Below, in pieces: positions 3,449-59,161 of a DNA stretch of 64,000 nucleotides; the first letter of the stretch is position 1; the number at the start of each line of letters is the position of its first letter. A model generated the notes under the pieces. The model saw only the letters and a list, made by a program, of their open reading frames with translations. It searched no databases and was not told the origin of the DNA. The DNA is taken from positions 10,168,001 to 10,232,000 of the forward strand of contig NC_134031.1 of NCBI RefSeq assembly GCF_964204645.1, in the 5' to 3' direction. The stretch is from Tubulanus polymorphus (taxonomy: Eukaryota > Animalia > Nemertea). Position numbers and translations under genes: made by a program.

Positions 3449-6239
3449 TCAATTACGGTTCCTTAATACTCTAGCTTGGTTTGAGAACCTGAAGTTACAA
3501 ATATAATTAAAATTATTTGGTAAATGATTATTAACGAGTTTATACATAAAGATAGCTACCTGTAATTTGTTCATATCAATTAAATTAAGTATTTTACCTT
3601 TTTTAAGTAAAGGGGCAGTGTGAGCAAGATACGGAGCATTAAAAATGAGACGAACTGTCCGCTTAAGCAAAGTACTTAGATGATGTAGCCGTATAGAATA
3701 GTTGGCACCCCATACAATATTAGCATATTGCATGTAAGGTAAAACTAGAGAATTAAAAATGGTAGGGAGAATATAAGCTGGTAAGGATTTACGTACTTTA
3801 TATAAGATGCCAATAGCACGCGATACTTTGTTGGACGTCATTTTAATACGGGGAGCCCAAGTAAGATTGTCATCCACTATAACACCAAGAAACTTGGATT
3901 CTTGACACCTTACAAGGGTGACATTATCAATTTTGATACGAAAATCACGAGGAACACGGATATTGCCGAAAATTACATAATTAGTTTTACTTATATTAAG
4001 AGATAACTTGTTAGCCCTAAACCACATGACTAGGTTTTTCAATTCGGAATTAATGATGGCATTTAATCTAATTGGGTCCTTATCACTAAAAAAGATAGTT
4101 GTGTCGTCTGCAAATAGAATAAAGTTGAGTAGATGAGATGTACGGATAATGTCATTAATGTAAAGTATGAACAGTAGCGGACCAAGAATGGAACCTTGAG
4201 GCACACCGCAATTTATTGGAAGTGTTATTGAAGAACAACTATCATAAGAGACAAACTGATATCGATTAGATAGATAATTACTAAACCAGGCCAACGCAAT
4301 CCCGCGTATACCGTATCGTAGCAGCTTATCTAAAAGTATGGAGTGGTCAATAGTGTCAAAGGCCTTTGACAAATCTATGAAAATACTCACTGTTAGATAA
4401 CCGTCTTCTGTAAGTTTCGAAATGCGATCAGCGAAATCGAGTAATGCCATTTCTGTGGAACGGTTCTTACGAAAGCCATATTGGTTTGGACAAAGAATTC
4501 TATTTCTTATCAATATGCGAGATAAGACGGCAATGGGTTAGGCGTTCAAGAATTTTAGAGAAACATGGCAGAACAGAAATTGGTCGGTAATTAGTAATAT
4601 TATCAGTAGCTCCGGACTTAAATAAAGGCGTAACCCTAGCTATCTTAAGTGCATCTGGAACTATACCTGTAATATAAGACCTATTAAATATATGCAGTAG
4701 TGGAGACACGATTTCATTCATTGAGCATTTAATAATTTTAGGTTTTATATCATTTGGACCAGCTCCTTTGTTAGCATCTAAAGAGTTTACAATAGCAAAA
4801 ATGTCTTCTTGAATAATCGGCCTGAAAAATAAACTATCGGGACTATCAGTTGGTAGATACTGAGTTGGTAAGACATCAGCCCTGGGAATGTTTGATGCAA
4901 GCCTTCTCCCAATATCAATAAAAAAGAAATTAAATTTATCAGCAATTTCTTGTGAGCTTAATTTTCGCCCATTGTCAGTCTTGAACTCAGGAAGTATGAG
5001 GTTTTGCTTAGCAGTACCAATGACACTTCTTAGGACATCCCATGTTTTTTTCAAATTATGTTTTACATTAAATAAGGATTCCGCATAATAACGCTTTTCA
5101 GCAACTCTAAGCAATCTATGTAACTTATTACGGTATACCCTATATTGTTCGAAATGACAGGGTGGCTTTGTTCTTTTATATTTTCGGTAGTATTTACTCT
5201 TAGTTCTGATAGACCGAAGAAGACCTAATGTTAGCCATGGCTTGCGGGTATTTCGTTTGATAGTTTTAGCACGAACCGGAAATATTTGGTCATATAATAA
5301 TTTATATTTATTTAAAAATAGGTTGTACGATTTATCCGGATTGGCCTCATTTTAAACTTCCGTCCAGTCTACACGACTTAGCAGATTATTAAAATTATTT
5401 ATTGAGTGCTCATTGAATGACCTATAACGTATACTATGCGCAGTATTGACTTTAAAATATTGGTTATGGATCGTAAAGGTAGAAAAGTGGTCTGAGATAT
5501 CTGTCGTTAGAATTCCGAGGTTAGACAGCCGTTCAGCGTTAATATTCGTGTACATATGATCAATACAGGTAGCAGAGTGTTCCGTGATCCGTGTCGGTTT
5601 AGTTATTAAGGGCTGAAGCGATAAAGATACCATGTTATGCAAAAAGTCTTCAGTATGATGGTCCGTGTTGTGTTTAAGTAAATCAATATTAAAATCACCC
5701 ATAATAAATGCATTGTCTCTCGGCAATTTTTCTAAAGAGACATTTAACTCAGTAACGAAATCTTCAATAGAATGACCGCTTTGCCTGTAGAGAACACCTA
5801 CAAAAATGCGTTCGTTTTTAGATAGGAAAAGCTCGCATATAAGTAATTCAAATGTGTCACTCTCAATTGACAGGTCGTCGCGGAATTTAAAATTAATCCG
5901 ATCATCCACATAAAGCGCAACGCCTCCAGCATGATTAAAATGACGATTAAAAAATTTACTATTATAACCTTCCATATAGGCCTAATATGAAGTCTCATTA
6001 TCGTTACCATCCGTGGCCCAGGTTTCTGAGACACCAATGAACATAGGTAATTTATGTAAGCTTTGTATAGTGTCATATAGAAAATTAAAATTTTTATTGA
6101 TACTACGAACATTAGTATGGAAAAAGAGAATAGAATTAGCATCACAAGTGCGAAATAATTCATTAACAGTATTTAATGAGTAATACTTATCATTAGGAAA
6201 GTCACCATGGCCACCCGTTTCAAGATATCCATTATTCAT
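3449..6239 (-). pseudogene. LINE ORF2: AP endonuclease + reverse transcriptase, broken by stops and frameshifts
   Basis: Fragments 5982-6239, 5352-5975, 4500-5114, 3449-4513. APE motifs NVRS, SETW, GGVALY, MGDFNIDL, CIDH, SDH. RT motifs NYRPIS, QYGFR, DLSKAFD, GVPQGSILGPLLF, FADD, KFLGV. Confidence 0.95.
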
Positions 6240-6625
6240 ATAATTACTTAATGAACAAAACGATAAGGCGGATTCTGGTTATATGGTACATATTTAGACG
6301 TAATACAATAATACCCTTAATAAAAATGTAACAAACACACTGGTATGTATCAAGAGTAGTACGATATAATATAATAGAGTTAGTTAGAGTACATGGATTT
6401 GGACGATTTGTAATAAACTCGTTACTCAATTAATGATATGAAAATATGAATCCAAAACAATCATTTTAAATAAGAATTGTAAGTACGATAACGAAGTAGT
6501 ATTTATACTAAGCAGAAACTGTTAATAGTTCATTCATATCACTAGTAGAGCGCATTTGAATTAATCCATTAATTATGTTGAACTAAATATACGAATTTAC
6601 TCAGTATTCCACAATTCATGCATTG

Positions 6626-7642
6626 TTAGTAATAAGTACTATTATTAAATGGATTCACTGACGAGTTTGATGGTTCTTTGTCGTGAAATGGATTAGAACT
6701 CATAGTAGGTAAAGGCTGTGGCTCCGGACTGTTATCGTCAAGTAGAAGATTATCCAGGACCGACATATCCACGATTGAAACAGGTTTATCCCCTTCTTTA
6801 ACCTTCACAAAAATCTTGCCGTCGTAAACGTAGAAGCCAAATATTACTTTTGACTTCCACAGATTTCTCACATTAAACAACACATTTTGGCGATGCTTTG
6901 TAAGATCTTCATTAGCGTATACGTCATCGCCAAGATGTTTCTTATTCTTCAAGATTTTTTGACGCGCACGATACGTAACAAATTTACAAATAATTGGTCG
7001 ATTTTTTCCTGGTTTTTTGTATCCAAGTGAACGATCAATATCATGAAGCGAAATAGAACTATTAGCAGCTTTATTAGCAAGATTTATAACTATTTCTTCC
7101 GTGTTCTCATCCTCCGTTTCAGGTATACCATAGATAATTAAATTATTACGGCGGGAGTATTGTTCCGCTTGATCAGCTCGCGCCATAAGATTATTAATAA
7201 TAGCCCGTTGAGTGTTTATTATTGATTTTTCAATTTCTGGTTGCAAATGCGATCTGACTGCTTCCACAATGCGGCCAACTAAGGTAGCAGTTGATTTTTC
7301 ATCATTTAATATGTTTATAATAGCGTCACTAATACTGTCGCCCTGTGGAGATGGATTATCCTGACCATGATCCATGACAGATTCGCTACTGGTTCCTGCG
7401 ACTTCAATTTCTACGTTAACAGAACCAGTACATGGTTTTTTAATAGTCTCTCTCGGAGAAAACTCTTCTGTGGGGTGTCTCACTTTGTTCCGACTGTCAC
7501 CTGATGCGGGTGTACTTGTAAGGGGCTGTGGGGACAAAAGTGGAGGTACCTCGTGAGTTTCAGCGGCAGTTTCAGCGGCAGATTTCGGTTTCTGTTGTTT
7601 TGGTTTGGAATTCGATTTTCTACCCATGATTAGCATGTACAA
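6626..7642 (-). CDS. LINE ORF1 protein (coiled-coil + L1-type RRM/CTD)
   Basis: EQYSRRNNLIIYGIPE, RPIICKF and NEDLT motifs; lies upstream of ORF2. Confidence 0.85.
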   Translation of the reverse strand: MYMLIMGRKSNSKPKQQKPKSAAETAAETHEVPPLLSPQPLTSTPASGDSRNKVRHPTEEFSPRETIKKPCTGSVNVEIEVAGTSSESVMDHGQDNPSPQGDSISDAIINILNDEKSTATLVGRIVEAVRSHLQPEIEKSIINTQRAIINNLMARADQAEQYSRRNNLIIYGIPETEDENTEEIVINLANKAANSSISLHDIDRSLGYKKPGKNRPIICKFVTYRARQKILKNKKHLGDDVYANEDLTKHRQNVLFNVRNLWKSKVIFGFYVYDGKIFVKVKEGDKPVSIVDMSVLDNLLLDDNSPEPQPLPTMSSNPFHDKEPSNSSVNPFNNSTYY

Positions 7643-8616
7643 ATACAGGCGACGAATACAAACGACTGTCTATTTGGCACTAGAACGTTTATAAATGTCT
7701 AGAACGGAATGGAACGTAACTGTTGTATATACATAAACTCATCCAAGCGGAACGGAAGTACACGTATGCCAGTGACTATAGTTCACCATATAATATTAAC
7801 ATTAGTTATCCAACGAAGTCATTTACGCAAAAGTCATAAGTTATTTAAAGAAAAAACACGTACCGCAGCCATCCTCAGCACTTATTCAACGTGCAAGCAC
7901 GCAACACAATACAATTAGACCGGGTTTAGCATAAAAAACAGACATTTAACGTCCGAAATGCAGAACTGGTTAACTGACAACCGCCATGTTGTGGGTATGT
8001 TGTGTGAAGACCGTAGTGACCAGTTCCTTCCACGAATAATAGCTGGAAAGAGAGTAATCGAAATAAATAGTCATACACATAAGTGTAAACAACTTAGGCT
8101 TTCCACTGTCTCTATTCACTACATTTAGGGCTTATTCTAGGTGTATCCCCCCAAAAAGCTAGGTAAAGTAGCTAGCCAACAATGATCATTGCTTAACCGA
8201 GTACTCATTTGCTACCATATGTACAAATATTATAAAGAAATCATGTAAAACATTCCCTGGTTAACGGATTCTCACCTTATATTACGTAAAAACCTACCAT
8301 TCCTGTCCATATTACGTTGAATCGAGCCAAAAATCTTCAGGAAATGTAGCCAACGTAAATTGATTTACGAATAGAATTAACCAATTGACTCATTTTAAGG
8401 ATCATGGTTTCGTGGAATCCATTAAGGTCCTTAAACTCGCGATAAATTTAAGCCGAAAATGATTTCAACCATCCGCCATGTTTCATTCATTAGACACTTA
8501 TTACGCACCGGCTGTAGTAATCGTTCGTGGGAAATGACGGATCCGGACTAATTGTAAGTCCGATTCCGTGATTTACGGTTGACTCAAGGTCGTGCGGTAA
8601 ATTTTAGGTTTTTCGG

Positions 8617-11232: not shown

Positions 11233-11454
11233 AACAGTGTAGGCGGCCATGTTACATTGTTCACGTGATGAAATACTGAAATGTGATTGGATCCGTAAAA
11301 TCCGCGGAAGATGGCGGACGGGCAAAGCCTGTGTCATATTGAATGGGACAACCAGTCTATGTCTTCATTTCGCAATTTAGGTAATGTTGAAACCATCCAG
11401 AAAACGGAAGTGATATTGGAAAGATACAAAATGGCGGCTTTTTGAATAGCAGAA

Positions 11455-11641
11455 GGGATAGGGTTTAGGGTCCAGGGTTTAGGGTCTAGAGGGTCCAGAG
11501 GGTTAGGGTTAAGGTCAAGAGGGTCCAGAGGGTTAGGTTTAGAGATAGGGTTAGGTTCCGTTACATATTATAATAGGGTTAGCAACTTTCTAACTACTTA
11601 TAGCCTCATCCCGATAAGGCTATTAGTAGTTAGAAAGTTGC
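11455..11641 (+). repeat. Degenerate TTAGGG-like repeats followed by a 60-bp hairpin
   Basis: GGGTTAGGG/GGGTTTAGGG units at 11455-11557. Stem GCAACTTTCTAACTACT...AGTAGTTAGAAAGTTGC at 11582-11641. Confidence 0.7.
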
Positions 11642-11855
11642 GATTCCTGATATTATTATCTAATAGGGTATCTAATAGGGTATCTAATACATAGGTATAT
11701 TTTAAAAATATTTCAATATTTATATTTGTATGAGTTAGATTTTTAAACATTAAAAGTGTTAGTAAAGTTTTATTGAAATAATTCATATATATTCATGAAT
11801 AACATATAAATGAATAACTTCTAAAATCAATTTAGTAAAAAAATATGTATAATAA

Positions 11856-12493
11856 ATGGAACCAGAACAACCACAAAGTATTAATATTACAAATAACACT
11901 GGTGTTATAAATATATACTACAAGAAGTGTTCTAAGTGTGAATTAGATAAATTAGCTTTAACAGAATTTAGTAAGCGTAAGATTAGCAAAGATGGTTTTC
12001 AATATTGCTGTAAAACTTGTACTAAACTATATACCAAACAATATCGAGAAGATAATAGAGAAGCTTATAATGATTATATGACAGAATATACGAGAGAAAG
12101 ATATCAAACAGATCTTAATTTTAGATTGAAACAATGCTTAAGATCAAGATTAACACAATTATTCAACAAAGAAACGCATTGAGAAACACTATCTAATTTA
12201 TTGGGTTGTTCAGATGAATTTTTCATATCATGGATAATATATCAATTCGATGATAAAATGAATATAGATAATTATGGTGAATACTTTCATATTGATCACG
12301 TGTTGCCGATTTCTAAATTTGACATGAATGATGAATACAATAAAAAACTTATTTAAGACCTTTAGAAAAGAAGGAAAATATAATTAAATCTAATAAACTA
12401 GATATGAAATTATATTTAGATCAACTGGATAAAGCAAAGACATTTGTTGAATTATGGAATTCAACACATAATGAAAAATACGTTGAAGCTTAA
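11856..12493 (+). pseudogene. Zn-finger + HNH-like endonuclease, premature stop and deletion
   Basis: CSKC...KDGFQYCCKTC, then past the stop at 12182 LLGCS...DNYGEYFHIDHVLPISKF. Homolog at 40623-41242. Confidence 0.7.
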
Positions 12494-13929: not shown

Positions 13930-16900
13930 ATGGGAGAGAATGAACACCAGCCAGAAAATAATAATGTTAATAAAAATCAATATTATTGCCAATATTGTAA
14001 AAAATACATCGATACATCTAATAAAACACGACATGAAAAAACTGCAAATCATATAAAAAATGTAATAGATTTTGAAACTCCAGAAAATTCCAATGAAAGA
14101 AAAGAACGATTAGAAAATATGAATGTGGATGAAATAAAATGTGAAGTTTGTAATGAATTTATAGTAAAAAGGAATTATAATAGTCATCTCGAATCACAAA
14201 AACACCAGCAAAATTTGAGTAATAATGTTTTAGGAAAAGATTATTTTGATGATAAACCTCAAAAAGTAAAAGAATCAACTTCAAAAACTAAATCCATTTT
14301 AAATAAACCTTACATGGAAAATGTTAGAAATTATATTGATTCACTAGAAATAAAAGATACAATTGAAATCTTAGAAACATTACATAGTAAAATTGGTCCT
14401 GCAGCTATTATATTTAGATTCTTTAAAGGTACAACAATAGAAGATTATAGTAAATTTAATGAAATAATAGAAAAAATACTAGATTTGATAACAGATGTTG
14501 AATATCCAAAAATTAGTATCTCTGGGAAAGTAAGTTTTATAAAGTCAGAAGAAAAAATGAATTATAATATTCAAACACACTCTGAAGAAATAATTTCAAA
14601 AACACAAATAAAAGAGAAGTTAGAAAAAATATTTAATGAATTTAAACGTCATATTGAAGAAAGATATTTTGAGGGTTCTGGCTTAACATTGAATGAAATT
14701 ATATATTTAGATTTAAATGTTTATAATACAAAAAGGAATAAAACATCAAAAAGTAATAAAATGTTTAAAAATGATTCAAACTTTACAACAGAAAAGGATA
14801 TTAAAGCATCATCTTATATTAAATTACCATTTACAACAAAAGCAGTAATAAATGTTCAAAATGAAGATAATAAATGTTTTCTATGGTCAATTATTAGTTG
14901 TTTACACCAAACAGAAGATATGACGCATAGTTTTAGAATAACAAATTACCGGAAATATGAAACATTATATAAAATTGATCAATATCCAGTAACTATAAAA
15001 ATGATTCCTAAAATAGAAAAAGTTAATAATTTAAAAATAAATGTATTCGAATTAATGCAATTACCAAAGACAAAAGGTGAAAATATTAAAGATTATACAT
15101 TGGAAGCTTTATATTTAACAGAATATTATGATGATGAAAATGCTATAGATTTGTTATATTACAAAAAAGATGAAAATGAACATTATATGTGGTTAAAACA
15201 AATTTATTTATTCTTTAGAACAACAGAAAGTGATCATCATCGTAAAATTTATCTATGTAGAAAATGTTTATCTAAATTTATGACTGAGAATACATTATTA
15301 AAACATAAAGAATTATGTGATAATAAAGATTTTTGTAAATTAATAATGCCAACAGAAAAAGATTATAAATTGAAATTTACTAATCATAAATTTAAGAATA
15401 TTGTTCCATTTGTAATTTATGGGGATTTTGAATCGTTGAATAAAGAATTAACTGATCAAGATAGAAAAGAAATATATAACAAAAAGCAATTATTAAAATC
15501 AATGGACAAAGGAAATGAATTAAATGAAGACACAATTCAAGACCCACCAATTATAAATACAATTAAAAAAGTTCATCAAAGAGCTGCTGCTTATGGAATT
15601 TATATAAAATCAAATTATCCCGAATTATATGAAAGTCAATATATTTCTTGGTGAAAATGTAGTTAATGATTTTTGTGATAAAATGATTGAATTAGAAAGT
15701 GATTTTGTAAAATTATTAAACAAAAATAAAAGAATAGTTATGACAAAAGAAGATGAAATTGATTTTAATTATGCAACTCATTGTTGTTATTGTGAAAAAC
15801 GTTTTTATTCATTTGATAAAAAAGTTAGAGATCATGATCATTTAAATTCAAAATATCGTGGAGCTGCTCATGAAGATTGCAATTTACAAGCTAAGAAAGT
15901 TAATTTCGTACCAATATTATTTCATAATTTATCGGGTTATGATACCCATCTATTTATAAAACAATTATCAAAGAAATTGGGTACAATTAATCAAGAAATA
16001 GAAGAATATAATGCTATGAATGGTGTAAATGTAAGAAAATATGATTTTAAACTATTAGCTAAAACATCTGAAAATTATATTTCATTTCAATTTGGTTGCA
16101 TTAGATTTTTAGATTCTTATAGATTTCTAGCAAGTTCATTAGATAATTTATCAAAAAGTTTAGTTGATAATGATTTTGTTATAACTCGATATTATTATCC
16201 AAATGAACAAGATTTTAAATTATTGAGATATAAAGGCGCAATTCCTTATTCATTTTATAAAACACATGATGATTTTAATGTAATAGAATTATTAAAAGAT
16301 CAATTTTATGATCAATTAAAAGAGGAGTATGTGAAAGACGAAGTTTTTGATAGAACATTAAATATTTGGAACCATTTTAAGATGAAAAATCATGGTGAAT
16401 TAGTTGATTTATATTTAAAATCAGATGTTATGATATTGGCTGACATATTTGAAAAATTTAGAGAAGTTAATTTGAATCATTTTAATGTTGATCCTTGTTA
16501 TTGTTATTCAAGTCCTGGTTTAACCTGGCAATGTGGTTTAAAATATACAAATGTAGAATTAGATTTATTAAAAGAACCAGATATGGTTTTATTATTTGAA
16601 AAATCAATTAGAGGTGGAATTAGTGGTGTTATGGGAGATAGGTATTTTAAAGCAAATGATGAATATAAATTATTATATATTGACGCCAATAATTTATATG
16701 GTTGGGCAATGATGCAACCTCAACCATATAAAAATTTTATATTAACAGAAGTTGAAAATGGTGATAAAACTGATTGGGAAAGCGCAATTATTAGTTTAAA
16801 AGATGAAGCACCAATTGGTTATTTCTTTGTAGTTGATTTAGAATATCCTGAAAATATAAAGTTTAAAACAAGAAACAAACCTTATTGCCCAGAACATTTA

Positions 16901-18997
16901 ACTGTAGATGATAGTTATTTAAGTGAATACCAGAAGAAAATAAAACCGAAAGATCATGTTTTTACAGAAAAATTAATACTTACTCAAAATAATAAATAAA
17001 ATTATATTGTTCATTATAGAATGTTAAAATTTTATCTAAAACAAGGAATGAAATTAAAGAAAGTACATAGATATATTGAATTTAATCAATCGAAGTGGTT
17101 AGAAAAATATATAGATTTCAATACTCAACAGAGAACCATATCAAAAACAGATTTTGAAAAAGATTTTTTCAAATTGATGAACAATAGTTTTTATGGAAAA
17201 ACATGTGAAAATATTAGAAATAGAAATGATATTGAATTAGTAAATAATTCTGAAAGATTAAGACATTTACAATCAAGTCCTAGACATTTAGGAAATAAAA
17301 GGTTTGAAGATTATTTAACCGCGGTAAAATTAAAAAGAACGTCCATGAAATTTAATAAACCAATATTTATAGGTTCAACTGTTTTAGAAATTTCAAAATT
17401 ATTGATGTATGAATTCTATTATAATGTATTACAACCTCATTTTGGAGAAAAACATATAGAAATCTTATATTTTGATTCTGTAACAGCTGATACTCCAATA
17501 TTATTAAAATATAATAATCAAATATTAATTAGAAGAATTTCAGAAATAATTTCTTATCAAAATAAATCTTATATTTCGTATGGTGAAAAAGAACTAATAC
17601 AAATAAATGGATTAATGGATGTTTGGACAAAAAATGGATGGGCGAAATTAAAGAATATAATTAGACATAAAACGAATAAGAAAATCTATAGAGTTAGAAC
17701 TAAATTAGGATTTGTTGATGTTACTGAAGATCATAGTTTAATTAAACAAAATGGTGATGAAATAAAACCAACTGATATAAAAATTGGAGATGAATTATTA
17801 CACAACAGATTTTACCCAAGAATGAATCATATGTCATTTGATGAAATAATTGATAATATTTATAATATAGAACCCGAAACATTAGAAGAAAAAGAATATT
17901 TTATCAAAGGATTTTTCATGGGCGATGGTTCAGCAGGTGTGTATAATTATGTTAATCGCACTCAATATCGTTGGTATTTATGCAATCAAGACTTAAAATT
18001 ATTAGAAAGAATTAAGAAATTCTGTGAAGAAGTTTATCCAAATAAAACATTTAGAATCATGGATCATATGAAATCATCCGCGGTTTATAGAATATTTGTA
18101 AATAATCCTAAAGATTTTGCCTCAAAATATGATGATGAATTCTATATTCATGCAATAGTGAAAAGTAATACTTCAACTAAAGAAAAGATAGTTCCAGATT
18201 ATGTATTAAATGCAAAAAATAATTTAAGAAAATGGTTCTTCATTGGATTCTATGCAGCAGATGGTTCAAAAAGTTTCCAAAACCGCAAAACAATATCCTT
18301 TGCTCAAAAAGGAAAAGTTGCTATATCAGGATTGAATATATTATGTAGTTCATTAGGATTTAATATGAATATAGAATTAATTAAATCTAAACAAAATTGT
18401 TTTAATTTAAGGCATGTAGAAAAAGAATTAACAGAAGAAGTTAAAGATTTATTTGAAATATATAACCCAACTGACTATGTTTATGATTTATCAACAGATG
18501 ATGGAACATTCAATTCTGGGTTCCCATTAATCCAAAAAAATACCGACAGTTACATACTAAAAATCAAGACAAATGATATAACAAAAGACTTAAAAACATT
18601 AAAACATTATTTTGATTTTAGCAATTATCCCAAAGATCATGAACTATTTAGCAATGATAATAAAAAGATTCCTGGTAAGTTTAAAGATGAATTAGGAGGT
18701 GATGAAATGATTGAATTTGTTGGGATAAGAAGTAAAATGTATAGTTACAGAACAAAAGATCATGAAGCTAAAAAGTTAAAAGGAATAACAAAACATGTGG
18801 TTGATAAACATATAGAATTTCAAGATTATATAAAGTGTTTATATAACTCAATTGTAATGAAACATAAAATGAATTGTTTAAGATCAGAAGATCATGAGAT
18901 GTACATTAATGAAGTTGAAAAAACTAGTTTAAATCCATTTGATGATAAAAGGCATATTTTAGATGATGGTATAAAAACATTACCTTATGGCCATTAA
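13930..18997 (+). pseudogene. polB: Protein-primed family B DNA polymerase (N-terminal Zn fingers, OTU-like region, EndoVII-like insert, intein); one frameshift and one stop
   Basis: YGDFES (Exo I), FHNLSGYD (Exo II), LYLKSDV, YIDANNLYG (motif A), KLMNNSFYGK (motif B), YFD|TDS (motif C, split by intein), DHDH..RGAAH..CNL. Frameshift at ~15650, TAA at 16997. Confidence 0.95.
17477..18541 (+). mobile_element. Intein with LAGLIDADG homing endonuclease, 355 aa, open frame
   Basis: Starts SVTADTPIL. Block B VTEDHSL. LAGLIDADG motifs FIKGFFMGDGS and FFIGFYAADGS. Block F YVYDLST. Ends IQKN with +1 Thr. The paralog at 48633-48650 reads YLDTDS uninterrupted. Confidence 0.95.
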
Positions 18998-25329: not shown

Positions 25330-26577
25330 ATGAGTGGGAGTTATATAAGTCCTTCGAAGAATCATAGAATATCTAATGCTATTAAAGCAGAAAGATCACA
25401 TCATATAATTACTCATAACCCTTCAAATATTAATCCCGATGAAACTTTATATGTTAGAATTCCTAGATTAACACAAAATACTTTTTATGTTCCAAATAGT
25501 ATTTATTTATCAGCTGATATAAAAGTAATCGGTAATAATAATAATTATGTTGTTGATAATGTTGGAAGATATTTGATTAAAAAATTAACAATAAAGATTG
25601 GTCCGGAAACAGTTTTCTCATTAGATGATTATAATTTATTTTCACATTATAAAGATTTATGGTTAACTAAAGAAAATAGAAATAATATGATATTTCAAGG
25701 AATTCAATCAGAAAACCAAAATAAATTAAGATCTGAAGCCAATAACGCAGTAGTAAATAATGGCGTAGATAATTTGATTAAAAAGATTTATGGAAGCAAA
25801 TATAAAATTCCATTAGACTTTGAATTGATAAATAATAATGCACCTTTATATAAATACGCAATTCAAGAAGATATTATATTTGAGATAACATTTGCTCCTG
25901 TAAATGAAATTGTATTATCTAGCGTTGTTAAAGATATGGGTTATAAATTATCGAATATATGTTTAGAATATAACACAGTAACTAATGAAAATATTGCTAG
26001 CACAATTCAAACTCAATACAATCAAGGATTTTCATTATTATATGATTATATTGATAAATTTAAAACTGTAACTATTAATGCAAATGATGAAATAATTAAT
26101 GAGAATATTAACTTTCCTAGAAGATCTATTAAAGGTATATTAATATTTTTTACTATTGCAACATATTCTAATGGTGCAATAAATGTTGATAATTATTATA
26201 ATCCTGAAATAACAAAAGTAGAAATAACTATCGAAGGAATAGCGAATAAAATATTTTGTCAAGGAATGAGAATGATTGATCAATGGCCAGAAATTAGAAA
26301 ACATTTTATGAATGAAAAAGTAAAATCATTTGAAAATTGTAATATTAATCAAATTGATTATTATACCGGTAATAAATATGCATTATGGTTAGATTTTAGA
26401 ACAACAGAAGATAATTCATTACATGGTTCTGGAAAAAAACTACAGAACACTAAAGATGGAATACAATTATTCATGACAAAGAATAAAGGAATCAATAATT
26501 TTAAAATGCACATTTATATTATATCTGACGCGCAATTAAATAATGTAAATTCACAATTAGATAGTATTCAATATTAG
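25330..26577 (+). CDS. Probable major capsid protein (double jelly-roll)
   Basis: 415 aa, beta-rich, near-identical in three copies; size and context fit a Polinton MCP. Confidence 0.75.
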   Translation: MSGSYISPSKNHRISNAIKAERSHHIITHNPSNINPDETLYVRIPRLTQNTFYVPNSIYLSADIKVIGNNNNYVVDNVGRYLIKKLTIKIGPETVFSLDDYNLFSHYKDLWLTKENRNNMIFQGIQSENQNKLRSEANNAVVNNGVDNLIKKIYGSKYKIPLDFELINNNAPLYKYAIQEDIIFEITFAPVNEIVLSSVVKDMGYKLSNICLEYNTVTNENIASTIQTQYNQGFSLLYDYIDKFKTVTINANDEIINENINFPRRSIKGILIFFTIATYSNGAINVDNYYNPEITKVEITIEGIANKIFCQGMRMIDQWPEIRKHFMNEKVKSFENCNINQIDYYTGNKYALWLDFRTTEDNSLHGSGKKLQNTKDGIQLFMTKNKGINNFKMHIYIISDAQLNNVNSQLDSIQY

Positions 26578-26607: not shown

Positions 26608-27736
26608 ATGAGTGGTAAAAAAACTCCTAATACTAAAGAACAATATTTAAGAAATTTATATTACAACCCTGAGAGTTCGGTTGCTTATTCTTCTACTAAA
26701 AATATATGGCGTAAAGTAAAACAAGATAAATTAGATAAGATAATCCCACAAAATTTAGTTAAATATAAAGATATAAATGAATTTATGTTAGAACAACCAA
26801 CATATACAACACATAAAAAAATTGTTAGAAAATATAAAACTCGTAAAACTATGGTAAGTTATGTAGATCAACAGTGGCAAGGAGATTTAATTGATATGAA
26901 AAATGTTAAGAAAGATAATGATGATTATTGGTGGTTATTGAATATAATTGATATTTTTAGTCGTTATGTATGGAGTTTCCCACTTTATAGAAAAGATGCT
27001 GTACAAACATCAAATGTTTTAGAAAAAATTTCTTTCGGATGATAAACTAAATCCAGAAAAAATACAATTTGATGATGGAAAAGAGTTTGATAATTCACTT
27101 GTTCATGAACTCTTAGATAATCATAATATTAAATATTTTTCAACAAAATCAGATAAAAAAGCAGCAGTTGTTGAACGATTTAATAGAACATTAAGAACAA
27201 GAATGTGGAAATATTTTACAGCAAATAATACTTTTAAATGGATTGATGTTTTACCAAAATTGATAGAAGGATATAATAATTCTTATCATTCTTCTATTGG
27301 AATGAAACCTATTGATGCTAGAAAATCTGAAAATGCTGAAATTGTTTGGAATAATTTATATGGAGCATTTCTTGTAGATGATTTTGGTGAACCTAAATTT
27401 AAAGTTGGCCAAAATGTTAGAATATCTAAGTATAAAAAGATATTTGACAAAGGATACGATCGAAATTTTACTAGGGAAATATATAAAATAAAAAAGGTAA
27501 TAACAACAAAACCATATGTCTATAAATTAGAAGATTTAGATGGTGAAGAAGTTGATGGCTACTTTTACGGAGAAGAATTAAGTTTAACTACTGAAAATCT
27601 AGAACAAGAATATAAAATTGAAAAAGTATTAAAAACAAAAACTATTAAAAGAAAAAAATATTCTTTAGTAAAATGGGTTGGATGGCCAGATAAATTTAAT
27701 GAATGGATATTATCAAGTAAAATTAAAAATATATAA
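26608..27736 (+). pseudogene. Retroviral-like (rve) integrase with C-terminal chromodomain; frameshift at ~27030
   Basis: WQGDLIDM, IDIFSRY, QFDDGKEF, VERFNRTL; chromodomain YKIEKVL..LVKWVGWPDKFNEWI. Confidence 0.92.
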
Positions 27737-28345
27737 ATGAATAAGGAATTATTCATATTTGAGCCTCATAATATGTTAATTTCTGGTGTAACAAATTGTG
27801 GAAAAACTTATTTTATATTAAATTTATTAGAAACTGTTTATGAAAACTATTTTGATAATATAGTATTATTTTGTCCAACATATGAATTTAATCAAACTTA
27901 TGATAGAAATATTACTAGGAATAATAAATTTATTATATTAGATCCTAAAACAGTAAAAGAAAATTTAGATAATTGTATTAAAATAGCAATTGATATTTAT
28001 AAAGGATCAAATACATTATTCATTATAGATGATTGTGCTAATCTACATGATTCAAAAGTTAGAGAAAGTGAGTTATGCTATTTAGCTTTCTCTGGGAGAC
28101 ATTTTGGGATAACAACTTGGGTTTTAAATCAAAAATATAATTCAATTGTTAAAGACTTTAGAGAAAACATTAGATTTCTAGTTTTATTCTACAATAAAGA
28201 TAGAAAATCAATGAAAAATGCACTTGAGGAAAATGATATTATTCCACATGATTTACATAATGAATATATGGATAAGTTGAAAAATATTAAAAGATCAAAA
28301 TTACTATTTAGATTACAACACCCATTTAAATATGAATTTATTTAA
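27737..28345 (+). CDS. A32/FtsK-like DNA packaging ATPase
   Basis: Walker A GVTNCGKT, Walker B LFIIDD, GRHFGITTWVLNQ. Confidence 0.92.
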   Translation: MNKELFIFEPHNMLISGVTNCGKTYFILNLLETVYENYFDNIVLFCPTYEFNQTYDRNITRNNKFIILDPKTVKENLDNCIKIAIDIYKGSNTLFIIDDCANLHDSKVRESELCYLAFSGRHFGITTWVLNQKYNSIVKDFRENIRFLVLFYNKDRKSMKNALEENDIIPHDLHNEYMDKLKNIKRSKLLFRLQHPFKYEFI

Positions 28346-28351
28346 ATTCAA

Positions 28352-28608
28352 TTAGTTTGTTAATCTAGTTGAATTCTAGTTGAATTCTAGTTATTAGTAG
28401 TTGTAACAAAAATCAAATAGATTTAACAATATTTTAACTAGCTTGTTAATCTAGTTTAATTCTAGTTACATTCTAGTTGAATTCTAGTTGTTAGTAGTTG
28501 GAACAAAAATCAACTACATTTAACAAGAAATAAACAAAAACAACAATATTTCAACTAGCTTGTTAATCTAGTTGAATTCTAGTTACATTCTAGTTGAATT
28601 CTAGTTGC
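28352..28608. repeat. Intergenic CTAGTTGAATT repeat blocks (three clusters)
   Basis: TTGTTAATCTAGTT(G/T)AATTCTAGTT... at ~28357, ~28443 and ~28560. Confidence 0.8.
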
Positions 28609-28638
28609 AACAACACAACTAATTTATTTGTTTTATAA

Positions 28639-29244
28639 ATGGGAGGTGAAAAGAAAATAAAATCTAAAAATGGTGATGTTCCAATTGAAAAAACTTTAGA
28701 TGATTTAGGAATAACAGAAACAAAATTAACTCCAGATGATGGTGCTTTAAATAATGTTACAACAAATAATAATTATGAATATTATCTTTATTGTAAACAT
28801 CAATTAGAAATATTAATAGCATCTGGAAAATGTAAAAATTTTGTCGGTAAAAATTTAACTTATAATGAATTAGATACAATGAAATCAGATGAAATTATTA
28901 GATTATTTAAGATTTATGAAGCCGCGAGAACAGCTAAAATTAATGACGCGATATCAGAAAATGTAGTAAAAGGTTATAGTAAATTATGTAATTATATACT
29001 ACCAATTGAAGATGAAAATAGATTATATTCCGATTTAAAAAATGATTATTTAGTTATGACTGAATTAAATAAATGGATTGGATATTTATCATTTCAATTA
29101 GGAGGATTTATGACATTATTATCAACCGGGGTTATAACATTTTCAAATATTGAAAGTAAAAATATTTCTATAATAAATGAGCGAAGTGAAAGAAGTGAAG
29201 GAATTAACTGTGAAGAAAAAACCGAGAACTCAGAAACAAATTGA
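28639..29244 (+). CDS. Conserved Polinton ORF (homolog of MSKKSSK family)
   Basis: Shares IEKTLDDLGI, YEYYLYCKH and DLKNDYLVMTEL with 37885-38487. Confidence 0.8.
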   Translation: MGGEKKIKSKNGDVPIEKTLDDLGITETKLTPDDGALNNVTTNNNYEYYLYCKHQLEILIASGKCKNFVGKNLTYNELDTMKSDEIIRLFKIYEAARTAKINDAISENVVKGYSKLCNYILPIEDENRLYSDLKNDYLVMTELNKWIGYLSFQLGGFMTLLSTGVITFSNIESKNISIINERSERSEGINCEEKTENSETN

Positions 29245-29546
29245 ATGGTCTCGACAATTAGGAATTAAATCACAAGAATATAAAAAAGCTGTAAAAGAAA
29301 AAATAAGTAATAAAAATGTTAATAAAAATGGTGAAAATATTGTTATTTCTACTCCTTCTGATAAGTAGAATATTTGATAAATATCTATATTTTACAGTTG
29401 GATTTGTAATTGTATTCATTTTGATTGGGTGTAATTGGTATAAGAAATCAAATAAAATTCATGATATTAGTAATTCTGAACCAACTGCTATCAAAAATGA
29501 AAGTACTTCTGAAATTCAAAAATTGATAATAAAAAAAATGGATTAA
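29177..29546 (+). pseudogene. Single-TM protein (MSDDIE family homolog), disrupted
   Basis: KKPRTQKQIEWSRQLG matches 59162-59530; split into two ORFs. Confidence 0.65.
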
Positions 29547-29684
29547 TATTTTAGAAAAAAAGCAAAAAAAATAATTGAATATCTCACTACTTTTGTCTAT
29601 CTATGTGGAGCAATTAAATTGTCCAGATAAGTCATTTCGGATTCTAGATATTCATTATTTTTATTAATTTATTTTTTTTTAAAT

Positions 29685-30011
29685 TTAATCAACAATTTCT
29701 AAATCATGATGACCGTCTTCATTTTTCCCATGATATATTATTTTAAATCCTACTAAATCTTTCAATTCCTCCGTACTCAATGAAACCCATTTATCGGGTA
29801 AAAACACTTTAAATTCTCGCGATGTACTAACATTACAGTAGCTTAAATTAGCTGATACTTTCTCTCCATATTTAGTTTTTATCTTTTCTAATTTCAATAT
29901 TTTATGTTCAATTTCTTTTGTAACATCAACTAACTTTTTTATTTCAAATTGTTTTTTTGCTGGTTTTATTCTGTTATTTATTGTTGCTAAGAATGCTTTT
30001 CTATCTCCCAT
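29685..30011 (-). CDS. Small viral protein, possibly OB-fold ssDNA-binding
   Basis: Homologous to 49220-49573 (KYG, LPD, GKNE.GHH). The fold is a guess. Confidence 0.6.
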   Translation of the reverse strand: MGDRKAFLATINNRIKPAKKQFEIKKLVDVTKEIEHKILKLEKIKTKYGEKVSANLSYCNVSTSREFKVFLPDKWVSLSTEELKDLVGFKIIYHGKNEDGHHDLEIVD

Positions 30012-30146
30012 TTATTAGGAAAAAAAATTACTTGTGGTGATGAGTGGGGATTACTTCCCCTTGTATATAACAAACACGCTATTAACCGTTCTCACCCAAG
30101 CCTCACAACATCTATTAGGAGCAGTAATTATAACTATCTAGATAAG

Positions 30147-30362
30147 TCATTTCGGTTCCTTGATATCAAATTCCTCAACGTATTGTTCATTATTTGGATC
30201 ATTGTTCCATAATTCAATAAATTTCTTTGCCTTTGTTAACTGTTCTAAATATAACTGTAAATCTAGTTTATTATATTTAATTTGATTTTCTTTCTTTTCT
30301 AAAGGCCGTAAATTTTTCCAACCCCACATAAGTTTTTTATTGTATTCATCATTCCTTTCCAT
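30147..30362 (-). CDS. 71-aa ORF derived from the C-terminus of the HNH gene
   Basis: TAAATG start; intact near-identical copy at 38798-39013. Confidence 0.55.
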   Translation of the reverse strand: MERNDEYNKKLMWGWKNLRPLEKKENQIKYNKLDLQLYLEQLTKAKKFIELWNNDPNNEQYVEEFDIKEPK

Positions 30363-30669
30363 TTATAAGGAAAAAAAATTACTTGTGGTAATGAGTGGGG
30401 ATTACTTCCCCCTATATAACAAGCGCGCTATTAACCGTTCTCACCCAAGCCTCACAGCATCTATTTATCCGGGTACAGTTGACACGCAATCACTGTACTA
30501 CAGTAATAGCACACGCGTTAATAACCGTTCTCAGTAGAGACTCACTGTATCGATCTATCCACGCGCAGCTGTTGTTACGCGCACTCACTGTATATGTGTA
30601 TCACAGAGCAATCGTCCGTTCTCACTAGAGCCTAGCCGTGATGAGTGGTGTCTCATACTCAATTGAATT

Positions 30670-30739
30670 ATTACTTGTGGTGATGAGTGGTGTCTCGTCC
30701 TCTCGTCCTCTGGTATGAAACCCCACTTTTCTAATTACT
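30670..30739 (-). repeat. Right TIR of element I
   Basis: Reverse complement of 13845-13914. Confidence 0.95.
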
Positions 30740-30745
30740 ACCATT

Positions 30746-31141
30746 ACTTTTCAAGAACTAGACTCTATGAAACCCGATAAAGTAATAAAATATTTTAAGA
30801 TTTATGAAGAAGCTAGATTGGCTCGAATAAATGATTCTATTTCAGATAGTATTATAAAATGTTATTCAAAATTATGTAACCGGTTAATGACAATTAATGA
30901 TGAAAATAAATTATATAGTGATTTAAAAAATGATTACTTAGTTATGACTGAATTACAAAAATGTGTTGGTTATGCTTCATTTCAATTAGGATCGGTTATG
31001 ACATTAATTTCTACTGGCGTCATAACATTTTCGAACATCAAACCTATGGAATATAAATCAGGTAAGAACGAAACAGATGTACTACAACCAAACCGTGAAA
31101 CAGAAAATGAATCAGAACAAAAATTAACTAAAATAAATTAG
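30746..31141 (+). pseudogene. 3' part of the interrupted MSKKSSK-family ORF of element A
   Basis: In-frame continuation of 13641-13844. Confidence 0.9.
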
Positions 31142-31510
31142 TGATAGCGTTAAGAAAAAGGCTAGATCCGAGAAACAAATTAAATGGGCAAGAGAATTAG
31201 GTAAAAGATCTTCAGAATTAAAAAAGCTAAGAAAAAGAAATTAACTGATATAAATGAATCACAGACTTTATCTGATAATGATTCAAATGATAATCCATCT
31301 GATTCTTCTAATGCTGGAAGTAATTATAAATTATATATTACAATTGGATTAGTAACAGTTATTATATTATCCGGTGTAATATATAAATCAAAATTCAAAT
31401 CTGATGATAAAGATGATTCCAATGATAATAAACCTATCATACCAGAAAATAAGTCAAATCATAAAACCATTGAAACTAAATCTAAATTATTATTAATGGA
31501 TTAAAATAAG

Positions 31511-32641
31511 ATGAAAAAAGAACAATATTTAAGAGATTTATATTATAACCCAGAAAGTGAAGTATCATATTCTAACGTTTCAGAATTATGGAATAAAATT
31601 AAATCTGATAATGAAAATGGTAATGTTGCCGTATGACACCCACACGGTGATATAAAATATAGTGAATTGAAATCATGGTTACAAAATCAACCAACATATC
31701 AAATCCACAAGAAAATGGATAAAACTTATTTAACAAGAAAAGTTATGGTTTCATATATCGATCAACAATGACAAGCAGATTTAATTGACATGAAGAACTT
31801 AGAAGAATACAACAAAGGATATTTCTGGATATTAAATGTTATAGACATATTCAGTAGATACGCATGGTCAATTCCAATCAATAATAAAACTGGAATAGAA
31901 GTTACAAATGCTTTTAAATCTATATTTAAAGAAGCTATTCCAGATAAGATACAATTTGATGAAGGTAAAGAATTTTATAACAAACATTTTAAAAAACTAT
32001 TATCTGATAACGATGTAGATTATTTTTCAACACATTCAGATAAAAAAGCATCTATTATAGAAAGATTTAATAAAACATTGAAAACTAGAATGTGGAAATA
32101 TTTTACTGCTAATGAAACATATAAATATATCGATGAGTCTATAAATATATTAGATGATTTAGTGAAAGGTTATAATAATTCTAAACATTCAAGTATTGGT
32201 ATGAAACCTATACAAGCTAGAAAAGAAGATAATTCAGAAATAGTTTGGAATAATTTATATGGCGCATTTGTTACACATGATTTCGGTGAACCTAGATTCA
32301 AAATTGGACAACACGTAAGAATATCTAAATATAGAAAAACATTTTATAAAGGTTATACCCCTAATTTTACAGAAGAAATATTTAAAATTAAAAAGATAAT
32401 ATTAACTAAACCTTTTGTTTATAAACTAGAAGATCTAAAAGATGAAGAAATATTAAGTTATTTCTATGAACAAGAATTATCACATGTACCAAATCCAGAT
32501 GAAATAGAATACAAAATATAAAAAGTATTGAAAACAAAAACTCTTAAAGGAAAAAAGTATTCTTTGGTGAAATATAAAGGATACGATGATACATTTAATG
32601 AATGGATTTTATCTAGTAAAATTAAAAGAATAAATGAATAA
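31511..32641 (+). pseudogene. Chromodomain integrase of element A, multiple stops
   Basis: DDE motifs; stops near 31636, 31769 and 32519. Confidence 0.9.
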
Positions 32642-44924: not shown

Positions 44925-45269
44925 AGTAATAGGGAATAAGTTGTTTCATACCAAAGGTCGAACGGTCGAGCTCATAAAAAATAAAAAATAAATTCTCGCA
45001 AACTCGAATTTATTTTTTATTTTTTACTCACTCGCCCCTTCAACCTTTGATATGAAACAACTTATTCCCTATTACTCTTAAAATATTCATATATATGAAT
45101 AAAATATAAATGAATAACTTCTAAAATCAATTTTAATAAAAAATTTAGTATTAAAATGGAAGCAAATAAGTACTACCGTCCAACATGTAATATCAGTATA
45201 GATAAATCCCAAAAAGCAAGACACAATAAAACTAAAACACATTTAGAGAATAAATTGAAACTAGAATAT
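44925..45269 (+). repeat. Left TIR of element B, including a 152-bp terminal hairpin (44925-45076)
   Basis: 71-nt arms, 63 paired, loop TCGCAAACTC; the TIR extends into the polB 5' coding region. Confidence 0.92.
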
Positions 45270-48200
45270 AAAGATGATATATTAGAAACTAAATTAGATG
45301 AATTAAACAATGAAAAAGAAACATACAAATGTGATACATGTAATCAATCATTCAGTGATAAAAGATATTATAAAGAACATTTAAAATCTAAAAGTCACAT
45401 TAGAAATAAGAATAATGATATTTTAGGTGAAGATTATTTTGATAAAGATAATGATAAGAAACAGAAGACAATTAAAAGCATAAAAAATAAATTAAACAAT
45501 AAAAGACCATACATGGAAGATGTAAGAAATTATATTAATTCATTAGATAATAAAAAAGATATAGAGATAACCGAAGCATTTAAAAGTGATATTGGTCCAG
45601 CAGCTATTGAGTTTAAATTTCATAAAGGAAAAACATTAGAAGAAAATAAAAAAAATTTAGAAAATATGAAAGAAATAATAAAAATAATAACTGATGTTGA
45701 ATATCCTAAAATAAGTATATCTTCTAAAGTTAAATTCATAAAATCTGAAGATAAACCAATATATAATATAAATTCTCATTCACAACATATTATTTCAAAA
45801 CAACATATAGATGATAAATAAGATAAATGTGATAATGAAGTAAAAACTAAAATGGAAGAGAAATATTTTGAAGGATCTGGTTTAATATTTGATGAAATAA
45901 TATTTATGACCTTACATGTTTATAACACAAAATATAATAAGTTAACTATATCAAAACCAATTGATGAAAATAATGTATCATATTATAAAGAACCAGATAT
46001 TGAAGCATCGAGTTATATTAAACTACCATTTAAAACTAATGCTGTAATAAATGTACAAAATTTTGATGATAAATGTTTTCTATGGACAATTATAAGTTGC
46101 TTACATCCAACAGAAGATATTACACATAGTTTTAGATTAACTCATTATAAACCATTTGAAAATAATTATAAGATAGATAAGTATCCTGTTATAATTAAAA
46201 ACATCCCAAAAATAGAAAGAGATAATAATTTAAGAATAAGTGTATTTGATTTAATCAAATTACCAAATACAAGAGGTAACAATATAAAACATTATACATT
46301 AGAACCTTTATATCTATCAAAAGATTATGATTCAAACGATGTTATAGATATATTATATTATGAGAATCATTATATGTGGATTAAAAGTTTGATTTATTTT
46401 TTTAAATCAGAAAATGATTTTGATAATAAAATATATCTATGTAGAAAATGTTTACATAAATTCAGAACTGAAAGTGCATTATTAAATCATAAACAATTAT
46501 GTGAAAATCATGATTATTGTAAATTAGTTTTACCAAATGAAAAAGATAAAATGTTAGAATTCAAAAAATATGATTACAAAAATAAAGTACCATTTGTTAT
46601 ATATGGAGATTTTGAATCATTAAATAAAGAACTAACTGATCAAGATAGAAAAGAAATATATTATAAATGAAAGAAATTAAATTCTAATGAAAAAGATTTT
46701 TCAGATGAACCACCAAAAACAAATACTATTAAAAAGATTCATCAATCAGCTGCTGCTTTCGGGTTATATATAAAATCTGATTATCCAGAACTAATTAAAA
46801 GTGAATATTATCATTATAGAAATGAAAATGTTATCAATCATTTTTGTGACTTATTAATTGAATATGAAATACGATTTAGTAAATTATTGAATACAAATAT
46901 AGAAATTATAATGACAGAAGAAGGTAAAGAAGCATTTGCGTTTGCAGATAAATGTTATTATTGTGAAAAGATATTTAATTATAAAGATAAAAAAGTAAGA
47001 GACCATGATCATTTGAATGGAAAGTTTAGAGGCACTGCGCATGAGAATTGTAACTTACAAGCTAAGAAAATCAATTTTGTACCAGTTATATTTCATAATC
47101 TATCAGGATGCACATTTATTTATCAAACAGTTATGTCATAAAATAGAAGAAATCAATAATGAAATAAAAAGATTAAATTCAAATAGATCAAAAGATTTAG
47201 AATGTTAGCTAAAACATCTGAGAATTATATATCATTCCAATTTGGTTGTCTAAGATTTATAGATTCATATAGATTTTTAAACAGTTCATTAGATAACTTA
47301 TCAAAATCATTAGTTGATGATGAATTAAAAATATTAAAACAACACTACCCAAAAAATGTTGATTTTCAATTAATGAGATATAAAGGAGCAATTCCATATT
47401 CTTTCTATAAAAATCATAATGATTTCAATATAACTGAATTATTAAAAGAACAATTCTATGATGAATTAAAAAATGAATATGTTAAAGATGAAGTATATCA
47501 TAGAACATTGAATATTTGGAATCATTTCAAAATAGAAAATCATGGGCAATTAGTAGATTTATATTTAAAATCAGATGTATTATTATTAACCGATATATTC
47601 GAAAGGTTTAGAGATGTAAACCTAAAATATTTTAATATTGATCCATGTCATTGTTATTCATCACCAGGTTTAACATGGGATTGTGGATTAATATTTACAG
47701 ATATGAAAATGGATTTGTTAACAAATATAGATCAATTATTATTATTTGAAAAATCTATAAGAGGAGGAGTTTCAGGTGTATTAGGCGATAGATATTTCAA
47801 TGTAAATGATAACCCTGGATATAAGTTATTATATATAGATGCAAATAATTTGTATGGTTGGGCAATGATGGAACCACAACCTTATGGAGTATTTGAATTA
47901 ACTGAAGTTTTACAGTATGAAAATAAAGATAAATTTGATTGGAAGAAAAGAATTCTAGATATTGCAGATGATTCAGATACTGGTTACTTCTTTGTTGTAG
48001 ATTTAGAATATCCTGAAGATAAAAAATTTAAATCTAGAAATCTAGCTTACTGTCCCGAACATAAAACTGTAACTCATGAAGAATTATCAAATTACCAAAA
48101 AAGAATTAAACCCGAAAATCATATTCATACAGAAAAGTTAATGGTAACTCAAGAAGATAAATATAATTATGTAGTACATTATAGAATGTTAAAGTTTTAT

Positions 48201-49172
48201 TTGAATCAAGGAATGATTATAAAAAAAGTACATAGATATATTTCATTCAGTCAATCTAAGTGGTTAGAAAAATATATAGATTTTAACACCAAACAGAGAA
48301 CTGAAGCTAAAACTGATTTCGAAAAAGATTTCTTCAAGTTAAGGAATAATGCATTCTATGGTAAGACTTGTGAAAATATTAGAAATAGAAATGATATTGA
48401 GTTAGTTAGTAATGGTAAAAGAATTAGACATTTACAATCATATCCTAAGTTCATTGGTAACAGAATATTTGATGAAAATTTAGCTGCAGTTAAAATGAGA
48501 AGAACATCAATGAAATTTAATAAACCAATCTATGTTGGCGCTTCAGTTTTAGAATTATCAAAATTACTAATGTATGAATTCTATTATAATATATTACAAC
48601 CACTTTTTGGAGAAAAACATATAGAAATATTATATTTGGATACCGATTCTTACATATTAAAGATAAAAACTGATAACATAACTAATGATTTAAAAACATT
48701 AAAACATCATTTTGATTTCAGTAATTATCCTAAAGATCATGAATTGTTTAGCAATGATAATAAAAAAGTTACCGGTAAATTCAAAGATGAATTAGGTGGT
48801 GAAGAAATGATTGAATTCATAGGTATTCGATCTAAAATGTATTCATATAAAACTAAAACTCATGAAGCTAAAAAGTTAAAAGGAATAACCAAAAGTGTAG
48901 TAGAAAAGAATATTCATTTCAAAGATTACATCAATTGTATATTCAATGAAGAAGTTAGAAAACATAAAATGAGATGTTTAAGATCTGAAGATCATGAAAT
49001 GTTTATTGAAGAAATTGAAAAGATAAGTCTAAACCTATTTGATGATAAAAGATATATTCTGGATGATGGAATTCATACAGTTGCTTATGGTTGTGATTTA
49101 GATGAATACTTAAAATTTAAAAGAGAAGAAACAAAAGAGAACGAGATACTGAAAAGAATTCTAACGTGTTAA
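45156..49172 (+). pseudogene. polB: Protein-primed family B DNA polymerase, intein-free; several stops and frameshifts
   Basis: YGDFES, YIDANNLYG, NNAFYGK, YLDTDS; fragments 45156-45821, 45852-46670, 46887-47141, 47202-49172. Confidence 0.95.
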
Positions 49173-59155: not shown

Positions 59156-59161
59156 TTTATT

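Follow-up and report, generated by a model that had tools for sequence, protein, structure and literature searches.

A pol-c intein in a Polinton protein-primed DNA polymerase and evidence for a Polinton-specific intein clade with giant-virus affinities

Inteins at the pol-c site of PolB DNA polymerases, where motif C is split as YGD|TDS, have been described for Mimivirus and archaea (PMC549080). According to the available text of the respective sources, inteins are absent from metazoan genomes (reviewed in PMC8529194), and a survey across eukaryotes recorded none beyond fungi, algal plastids and giant viruses (PMC5784728). The accessible part of PMC11071308 suggests that Polinton polymerases were invaded by inteins, citing Jeong et al. 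(10.1101/2023.08.22.554363); in the available text of the latter, the word 'intein' occurs 0 times. The same count of 0 was obtained for the available text of the adintovirus and coral polintovirus papers, and four further articles (PMC12220804, PMC13768754, PMC3671162, PMC5718144) mention inteins only in general terms in the portions available. In the mostly open-access literature searched, we found no account of a Hint-type intein in either a Polinton polymerase or an animal genome; the supplements of PMC10710043, whose main text is free of the words 'animal', 'metazoa' and 'transpos', could list such cases.

We analysed a stretch of 64,000 nucleotides (the window), in which a preliminary description had reported a 1065-bp in-frame insert that splits motif C of a Polinton polymerase as YFD|TDS, the site used by the archaeal and giant-virus (Mimivirus) PolB inteins. 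Both statements were borne out. The insert (17477..18541, plus strand, as all features below unless stated otherwise) is stop-free, lies in frame with the open reading frame 17000-18997 and comprises 355 codons, reading S-V-T-A-D...I-Q-K-N between YFD and TDS. Its boundaries are fixed, since the blastn alignment to a second Polinton polymerase in the window, which has an empty site (YLD|TDS), breaks exactly at the insert ends: the match ends at 17476 and restarts at 18540, across 48641/48640 of the empty copy. The insertion is codon-exact and absent from this sister-copy homologue.

Sequence and predicted fold identify the insert as a LAGLIDADG intein of class 1, located at the pol-c site. It carries the class 1 residues as given in the accessible text of PMC4031507, namely Ser1, Thr83, His86, Asp337, Asn355 and Thr+1. 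The N-terminal splicing (Hint) region (17477..17812) includes Ser1, block A and block B with Thr83/His86 (17723-17734), and S1, T83 and H86 are invariant across 50 aligned rows. The two-motif endonuclease domain (17837..18415), predicted to adopt an I-DmoI-like fold, retains both LAGLIDADG aspartates, Asp150 in motif 1 (17903-17929) and Asp262 in motif 2 (18239-18265), together with the block D lysine Lys237 between them. In the C-terminal splicing region (18437..18541), block F Asp337 is followed by Gly343 in place of His, Lys354 and Asn355. Profile searches, a check proposed in the preliminary description, placed LAGLIDADG_3 (PF14528, E 6e-8) above its Pfam cut-off and the NCBIfam model intein_Nterm (TIGR01445) at 30.4 bits versus a cut-off of 24.5, while Intein_splicing of Pfam (E 2.5e-6) stayed below its cut-off. 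An AlphaFold2 model based on the 50-row alignment reached a mean pLDDT of 93 and is that of a Hint fold; its best PDB matches by Foldseek are homing-endonuclease inteins (TliVMA with E 5e-18, PI-PkoII, PI-PfuI and PI-SceI), and its best named viral matches in BFVD are giant-virus DNA polymerases. Profiles and model agree with the splicing blocks and the two LAGLIDADG motifs that had been read from the sequence.

The host gene (13930..18997) is a Polinton protein-primed PolB, as first described: PF03175 matches the intein-bearing polymerase above the cut-off (E 2e-14) and PF00136 is absent. The gene consists of three pieces (13930-15654, 15608-16999 and 17000-18997) and contains an HNH/EndoVII-like insert, for which PF02945 is weak in this copy and above the cut-off in the sister copy. 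It is interrupted twice upstream of the intein, by a frameshift (overlap 15608-15654) and by an in-frame stop (16997-16999). That the intein frame is open despite these breaks was correctly noted, but given 2 breaks per 4003 extein nt an unbroken stretch of 1065 nt is expected by chance (P=0.59). The open frame is therefore no evidence of selection, and we rejected it as a sign thereof. In the same way, the term 'intact' holds for the uninterrupted frame but says nothing of activity. Because both breaks of the host gene precede the intein, this intein-bearing copy is probably dead or silent and the gene not expressed.

The window as a whole represents a rearranged, repeat-rich Polinton cluster with a GC content of 24-25%, located between flanks of 37-43%. 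The hallmarks of Polintons were found: a protein-primed PolB, an rve integrase with chromodomain that is split by a frameshift (26608..27736, identified by profile search), an A32-like packaging ATPase (27737..28345; PF04665, E 3e-13), a jelly-roll capsid and terminal inverted repeats (TIRs). The capsid match is weak, as the major capsid-like protein of the intein-bearing Polinton (25330..26577) hit Capsid_N with E 0.03, and its Atlas neighbours, which include Capsid_N/Capsid_NCLDV clusters at a low recognition score, are a lead only. Among the 66 window proteins scanned, no Pfam match to an adenain-like cysteine protease was obtained, and an Rfam scan of the window gave no match. In the first Polinton cluster, the TIR-like arm on the left (11687..12460) has an inverted partner at 40671-41396 with 83% identity. 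The second Polinton element spans 44925-60754; its left TIR (44962..45269; no strand is assigned to either arm) is 99% identical over 308 nt to the partner at 60448-60754, with the terminus AGTAAT at 44925. Its polymerase ORF (47187..49172), with exteins 78% identical to the intein-bearing polymerase, has the empty site between 48641 and 48642. Where a 6-bp target-site duplication was sought, the Polinton ends in the window are truncated or rearranged.

Several further properties of these elements were observed. The two Polintons (14211-18990 versus 45404-49090) share 74-78% identity in the polymerase and 89-93% in the structural genes, which suggests an exchange of the polymerase module between Polinton families. 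The integrase-ATPase module is present four times in 26608-38500 and 57476-59945, in both orientations, and an inverted duplication of 2.5 kb (30743-33264 / 35778-38286) lies in the integrase-ATPase region. The Polinton termini at 41490-41681 and 44925-45076 start with AGTAATAGGG, contain long internal palindromes of ~190 and ~150 nt, respectively, and end with the reverse complement; such large terminal hairpins inside the TIRs may act as replication origins. The hairpin-like end at 11570-11690 is of another kind than the AGTAATAGGG termini, and a stretch rich in GGGTTTAGG/GGGTTAGG (11450-11560) adjoins the first Polinton end on its left. The CpG observed/expected ratio is 0.53-0.68 in the Polintons (11570-41681 and 44926-60753) in comparison to 1.0-1.45 in the host flanks, and this depletion is possibly a consequence of targeted methylation.

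The flanks, free of CpG depletion, contain microsatellites, a 144-bp tandem array (61676-62570; 6.2 copies at 97%), both strands of which contain long open frames, and a decayed LINE on the minus strand (3449..7669) with ORF1, APE endonuclease and RT, in which RVT_1 and Exo_endo_phos were recognized and ORF1 remained without Pfam or PDB match. The LINE and the repeats mark the host DNA as eukaryotic. The LINE presumably belongs to the CR1/L2 group by its look, and owing to this look and to the stated restriction of adintovirus virion genes to animals we consider an animal host very probable. As far as the accessible text of the sources goes, the CR1/L2 group is widespread in metazoans (PMC13343379, PMC4120745), and adintovirus virion genes appear to be restricted to animals (PMC8502044), a general statement that does not refer to the capsid in the window. 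Both points speak against a non-animal eukaryote such as a protist, an oomycete or an alga, or a symbiont in the sample, as the bearer of a real intein, which would then be one more endogenous-virus intein of microbial eukaryotes. HNH-type Polinton polymerases also occur in oomycetes according to the available text of Jeong et al. (10.1101/2023.08.22.554363), and intein-bearing viral polymerases lie on nuclear scaffolds of algae and a labyrinthulid (PMC10710043, main text). We nevertheless regard such a host as decidedly improbable, also because flank and intein both occur in whole-genome sequencing data of one species label from two studies, with the intein at no less than about 10 times the lowest host depth.

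These data comprise four runs of one study, which share 43-56% of the window words, and a 2026 whole-genome run of an independent study with the same species label (X6), of which 12% was read at 90% likeness; a marine metagenome run (X5, share 0.05) yielded 27 short pieces only and was left out. Runs X7 and X8 gave no pieces, which carries no weight in either direction, and the runs listed as sharing window sequence included no RNA data set. In run X6, ten extein bins (15000-17009) had a depth of ~274-331, the four bins lying completely within the intein 94-214, and the four host bins of lowest depth 12-18, these last being situated in a LINE that is itself possibly repeated. Furthermore, 74 reads end their match exactly at 17476, as expected of reads from empty copies. 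From these depths it follows that there are about ten or more intein-bearing copies, roughly half of a near-identical family, with free viral DNA as a further possible source. At both breaks of the host gene, the majority of the reads deviate from the window sequence, and the breaks are therefore largely private to the window copy. Fourteen differences inside the intein, from 40 of 586 differences listed, were classified as 6 synonymous and 8 not, and in view of this small share they were left out of the argument. Among the contig pieces listed, none bridges the host flank and the polymerase.

The preliminary description had named a chimeric contig among the findings that would undo its reading. 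The rearranged and repeat-rich nature of the cluster would lend itself to the mis-joining of a giant-virus fragment into a Polinton. Against such an artefact stand the in-frame, codon-exact insertion at a canonical site, the GC and GC3 content of the intein (0.25/0.15), which match those of the exteins (0.22-0.25/0.15-0.17), the independent runs whose reads cover the intein, and above all the same junction in many other Polinton polymerases. We consider a chimera refuted by these homologous junctions in other data sets, its probability being negligible.

A survey of other Polinton polymerases and a phylogeny against giant-virus PolB inteins, both likewise proposed beforehand, placed the intein in a family. 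The near-length search resulted in 57 matches among 2011 candidates, of which the top 33 lack PF00136 and show Polinton-type flanks at the same site where flanks are present. The longer search yielded 317 matches among 5557, the best 120 of which were examined; among the matches listed, it is headed by unbroken Polinton polymerases with intein, namely P0105 (63%), P0106, P0108, P0113 and P0116, and a separate search added P0090 as a further unbroken full-length intein-bearing ORF. Clusters of the listed carriers have up to 136 and 121 members, and their ENA contigs reach 1 Mb and 55 kb, respectively. Reduction of 120 full-length inteins at 88% identity left 92, which were labelled by their flanks (P0105 was set to Polinton by hand on the basis of PF03175). 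Same-site inteins were thereby located in 12 distinct non-redundant Polinton-type rows, which form one side of a branch in a quick tree (SH-aLRT 100) and without exception (12/12) keep both LAGLIDADG motifs. A careful tree was calculated under LG+G4, a non-mixture model, from 54 rows consisting of 10 of the 12 Polinton inteins, 35 hand-picked from the 80 giant-virus-type inteins, 7 inteins of other sites and 2 of archaeal type as outgroup. In this rooted tree, the Polinton clade (100/99) is nested several nodes deep among giant-virus-type motif C inteins, a label that rests on PF00136, GVMAG contig names and BFVD matches. The sequences thus point to one clade of Polinton inteins whose nearest kin are the pol-c inteins of giant-virus PolB. 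The best metagenomic giant-virus-type carriers are 35-44% identical to the window intein, and several end in GFPLIVKN as the latter does.

The preliminary description proposed that the intein crossed from an RNA-primed viral PolB into a Polinton. The best tree and the giant-virus-type nearest relatives outside Polintons agree with this direction, and a transfer from giant virus to Polinton is favoured by the sequence comparison. A tree with a basal Polinton clade is 23 log units worse, yet it was not rejected (AU p=0.088), and the deep branches of the 54-row tree are short and partly unstarred. These results would also fit an opposite transfer or a third source, with Polinton and giant-virus pol-c inteins as sister groups from an old common pool. 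We regard this as unlikely, given that the best tree nests the Polinton clade several nodes deep and that carriers of the giant-virus type, with 80 of 92 rows, greatly exceed the Polinton carriers in number and diversity. A Polinton-type intein junction was absent from the IMG/VR, JGI metagenome and GTDB loci, in which every readable junction was YGD (85 of 117 and 81 of 84 loci readable), and the six Polinton-type viral loci with readable motif C, out of nine, were all empty. In a tally over 139 new cluster representatives, 119 YGD junctions were counted, far above any other site.

Other relatives were encountered outside the pol-c site. The ENA protein P0137 has a close relative of the window intein at a GGD|TD site of an ADP-ribosylglycohydrolase, and others occur in type II topoisomerases and in PolB motif B, which points to non-allelic spread of the intein family. 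Related inteins of the representatives P0271 and P0305 lie two residues downstream (YGDTD|S), a second motif C site. Two YGD-site inteins, 35% identical (L118:8001-8984 and L119:8001-8984), are located on contigs binned as archaeal MAGs; either these giant-virus contigs were binned wrongly or archaea may truly carry such inteins.

Within Polintons, the identities of intein and extein to the window are 63/63 for P0105, 50/48 for P0106, 46/44 for P0242 and, with a looser fit, 42/51 for P0113, and the intein and extein trees group these four alike. Because intein and extein diverged in step across most carriers, an old residence in Polintons is indicated. Entry into an animal-like genome together with a Polinton, as proposed in the preliminary description, is retained in so far as an animal host is inferred, whereas a single recent arrival does not fit and is replaced by an old and widespread Polinton family. 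P0108 deviates from this pattern with 48/21, its polymerase being only 20-24% identical, and this mismatch suggests that the intein jumped to a distant class of Polintons. In a 17-row extein tree, three lineages contain full as well as empty alleles, and the full P0242 and the empty P0245 are only 5 residues apart. The P0106 cluster, with 15 members listed, contains 7 with intein, 3 with an empty motif and 5 fragments or unscored. Across seven full/empty pairs of this family, 12-13 residue differences fall within -6..+44 of the site versus 4-13 in the other ~1140 residues, and the flanks of the full alleles resemble those of sister families. Such a tract of changed flanks is homing-like, the pattern expected from homing with co-conversion; alternatively, a resistant empty allele could have been gained by recombination.

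These comparisons also bear on the possibility that Polinton inteins are vertically inherited, inert passengers, which still splice but no longer home and whose empty alleles are precise losses. The parallel identities in four of the five comparisons to the window would be in line with it, as would the two Polinton copies of the window, whose identity to each other neither rises nor falls in any clear tract around the site. The retention of both LAGLIDADG aspartate motifs in all 12 Polinton inteins, the close intein of P0108 in so distant a polymerase and the P0106 tract, which has the insertion site at its centre, argue against it, and we rate loss of homing as doubtful. Our main reading is that the window holds a pol-c Polinton intein, one of a clade present in many Polinton families, which likely persists by splicing itself from the polymerase and by homing into empty copies (probability roughly 0.8). 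The further-reaching reading, a Polinton-specific clade acquired once from giant viruses and now actively splicing and homing among Polintons inside animal germline genomes, stands at about even odds.

Since the two aspartates of motif C lie on opposite sides of the insert, the polymerase would need splicing, for which the standard four-step class 1 pathway is proposed. Ser1 would perform the N-O acyl shift, aided by Thr83/His86 and Asp337; Thr+1 would accept the N-extein; Asn355 would cyclise without either of the usual helper histidines; and YFD and TDS would be rejoined to restore motif C. The penultimate Lys in place of the usual His was singled out in the preliminary description. Lys354 is indeed present, but it is the commonest residue among relatives rather than an oddity (49 of 80 giant-virus-type inteins, 3 of 12 Polinton inteins). 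The window intein lacks both usual helper histidines, with K354 at the penultimate position and G343 in block F, a pair shared by 49 of 90 scorable relatives; according to the accessible text of PMC4031507, both histidines are usual and neither is required in all inteins. Among 76 of the 92 relatives, the block F/penultimate pairs were Gly/Lys in 51, His/His in 24 and mixed in 1. By count the two positions covary in 75 of 76, but this corresponds to 2-3 independent contrasts (p=0.5), and the covariation is therefore a lead only, hinting that Lys replaces both histidines in Asn cyclisation. As the Gly/Lys variant is common in unbroken viral polymerases, it very likely splices. In live Polinton elements splicing should work as well, because unbroken intein-bearing ORFs exist (P0105, P0106, P0108, P0113, P0116 and P0090).

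For homing, the endonuclease with Asp150, Asp262 and Lys237 would cut motif C DNA wherever another Polinton copy is empty, and repair templated by a full copy would move the intein plus some flanking sequence. The family may go back to a single ancient transfer from the RNA-primed PolB of a giant virus that shared a host cell with a Polinton; thereafter it would have diverged along with the Polintons, with losses, renewed homing and one or more jumps to a distant class of Polintons. If active splicing and homing in the animal germline hold true, no mobile inteins would have been known before to reside in metazoan chromosomes, and the clade would document at the molecular level that forebears of the animal Polintons multiplied in cells which giant viruses had infected as well. 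The multi-copy Polinton carrier would open an intein route into animal nuclei, and since a single genome would then offer filled and empty targets next to each other, homing could be tested directly in animal cells. A transfer out of an RNA-primed and into a protein-primed polymerase would represent homing between very distant genes with nothing but motif C in common. The family would date the contact between Polintons and giant viruses and bears on the question whether animal Polintons are helper-dependent viruses, and it offers natural Ser1/Thr+1 inteins without both cyclisation histidines for mechanistic work.

In comparison to known systems, the Hedgehog/Hint autoprocessing domains bring the Hint fold into animals as well, but without endonuclease and homing. 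The RNR intein of Chilo iridescent virus belongs to an animal-infecting virus, but to a free one and to another gene (PMC549080, PMC4031507, available text). Nuclease domains in Polinton polymerases are known from the HNH or VSR insertions of pPolB2 in the accessible text of Jeong et al. (10.1101/2023.08.22.554363) and resemble the HNH/EndoVII-like insert in the window, whereas the insert studied here is a complete Hint and LAGLIDADG intein in the catalytic motif. Like the window intein, those of Klebsormidium, Tetrabaena and Hondaea ('Honda') reached a nuclear genome inside the polymerase of an endogenous DNA virus, but their hosts are algae and a labyrinthulid and their viral-like polymerases lie in a giant-virus context (PMC10710043, main text). 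The closest described systems are the pol-c PolB inteins of Mimivirus, other Nucleocytoviricota and archaea (PMC549080 and PMC5784728, as far as available), which share with the window intein the YxD|TDS motif C, Ser1, the terminal Asn and Thr+1, the two-motif LAGLIDADG endonuclease and the length of ~350 residues. Their host is an RNA-primed PolB (PF00136), in contrast to the protein-primed PolB (PF03175) of an integrating Polinton, and the Polinton inteins form a clade of their own in multi-copy chromosomal elements. For an intein, the host gene is of a new kind and the host genome probably so, and the Polinton-specific clade, with its signs of homing, is apparently undescribed.
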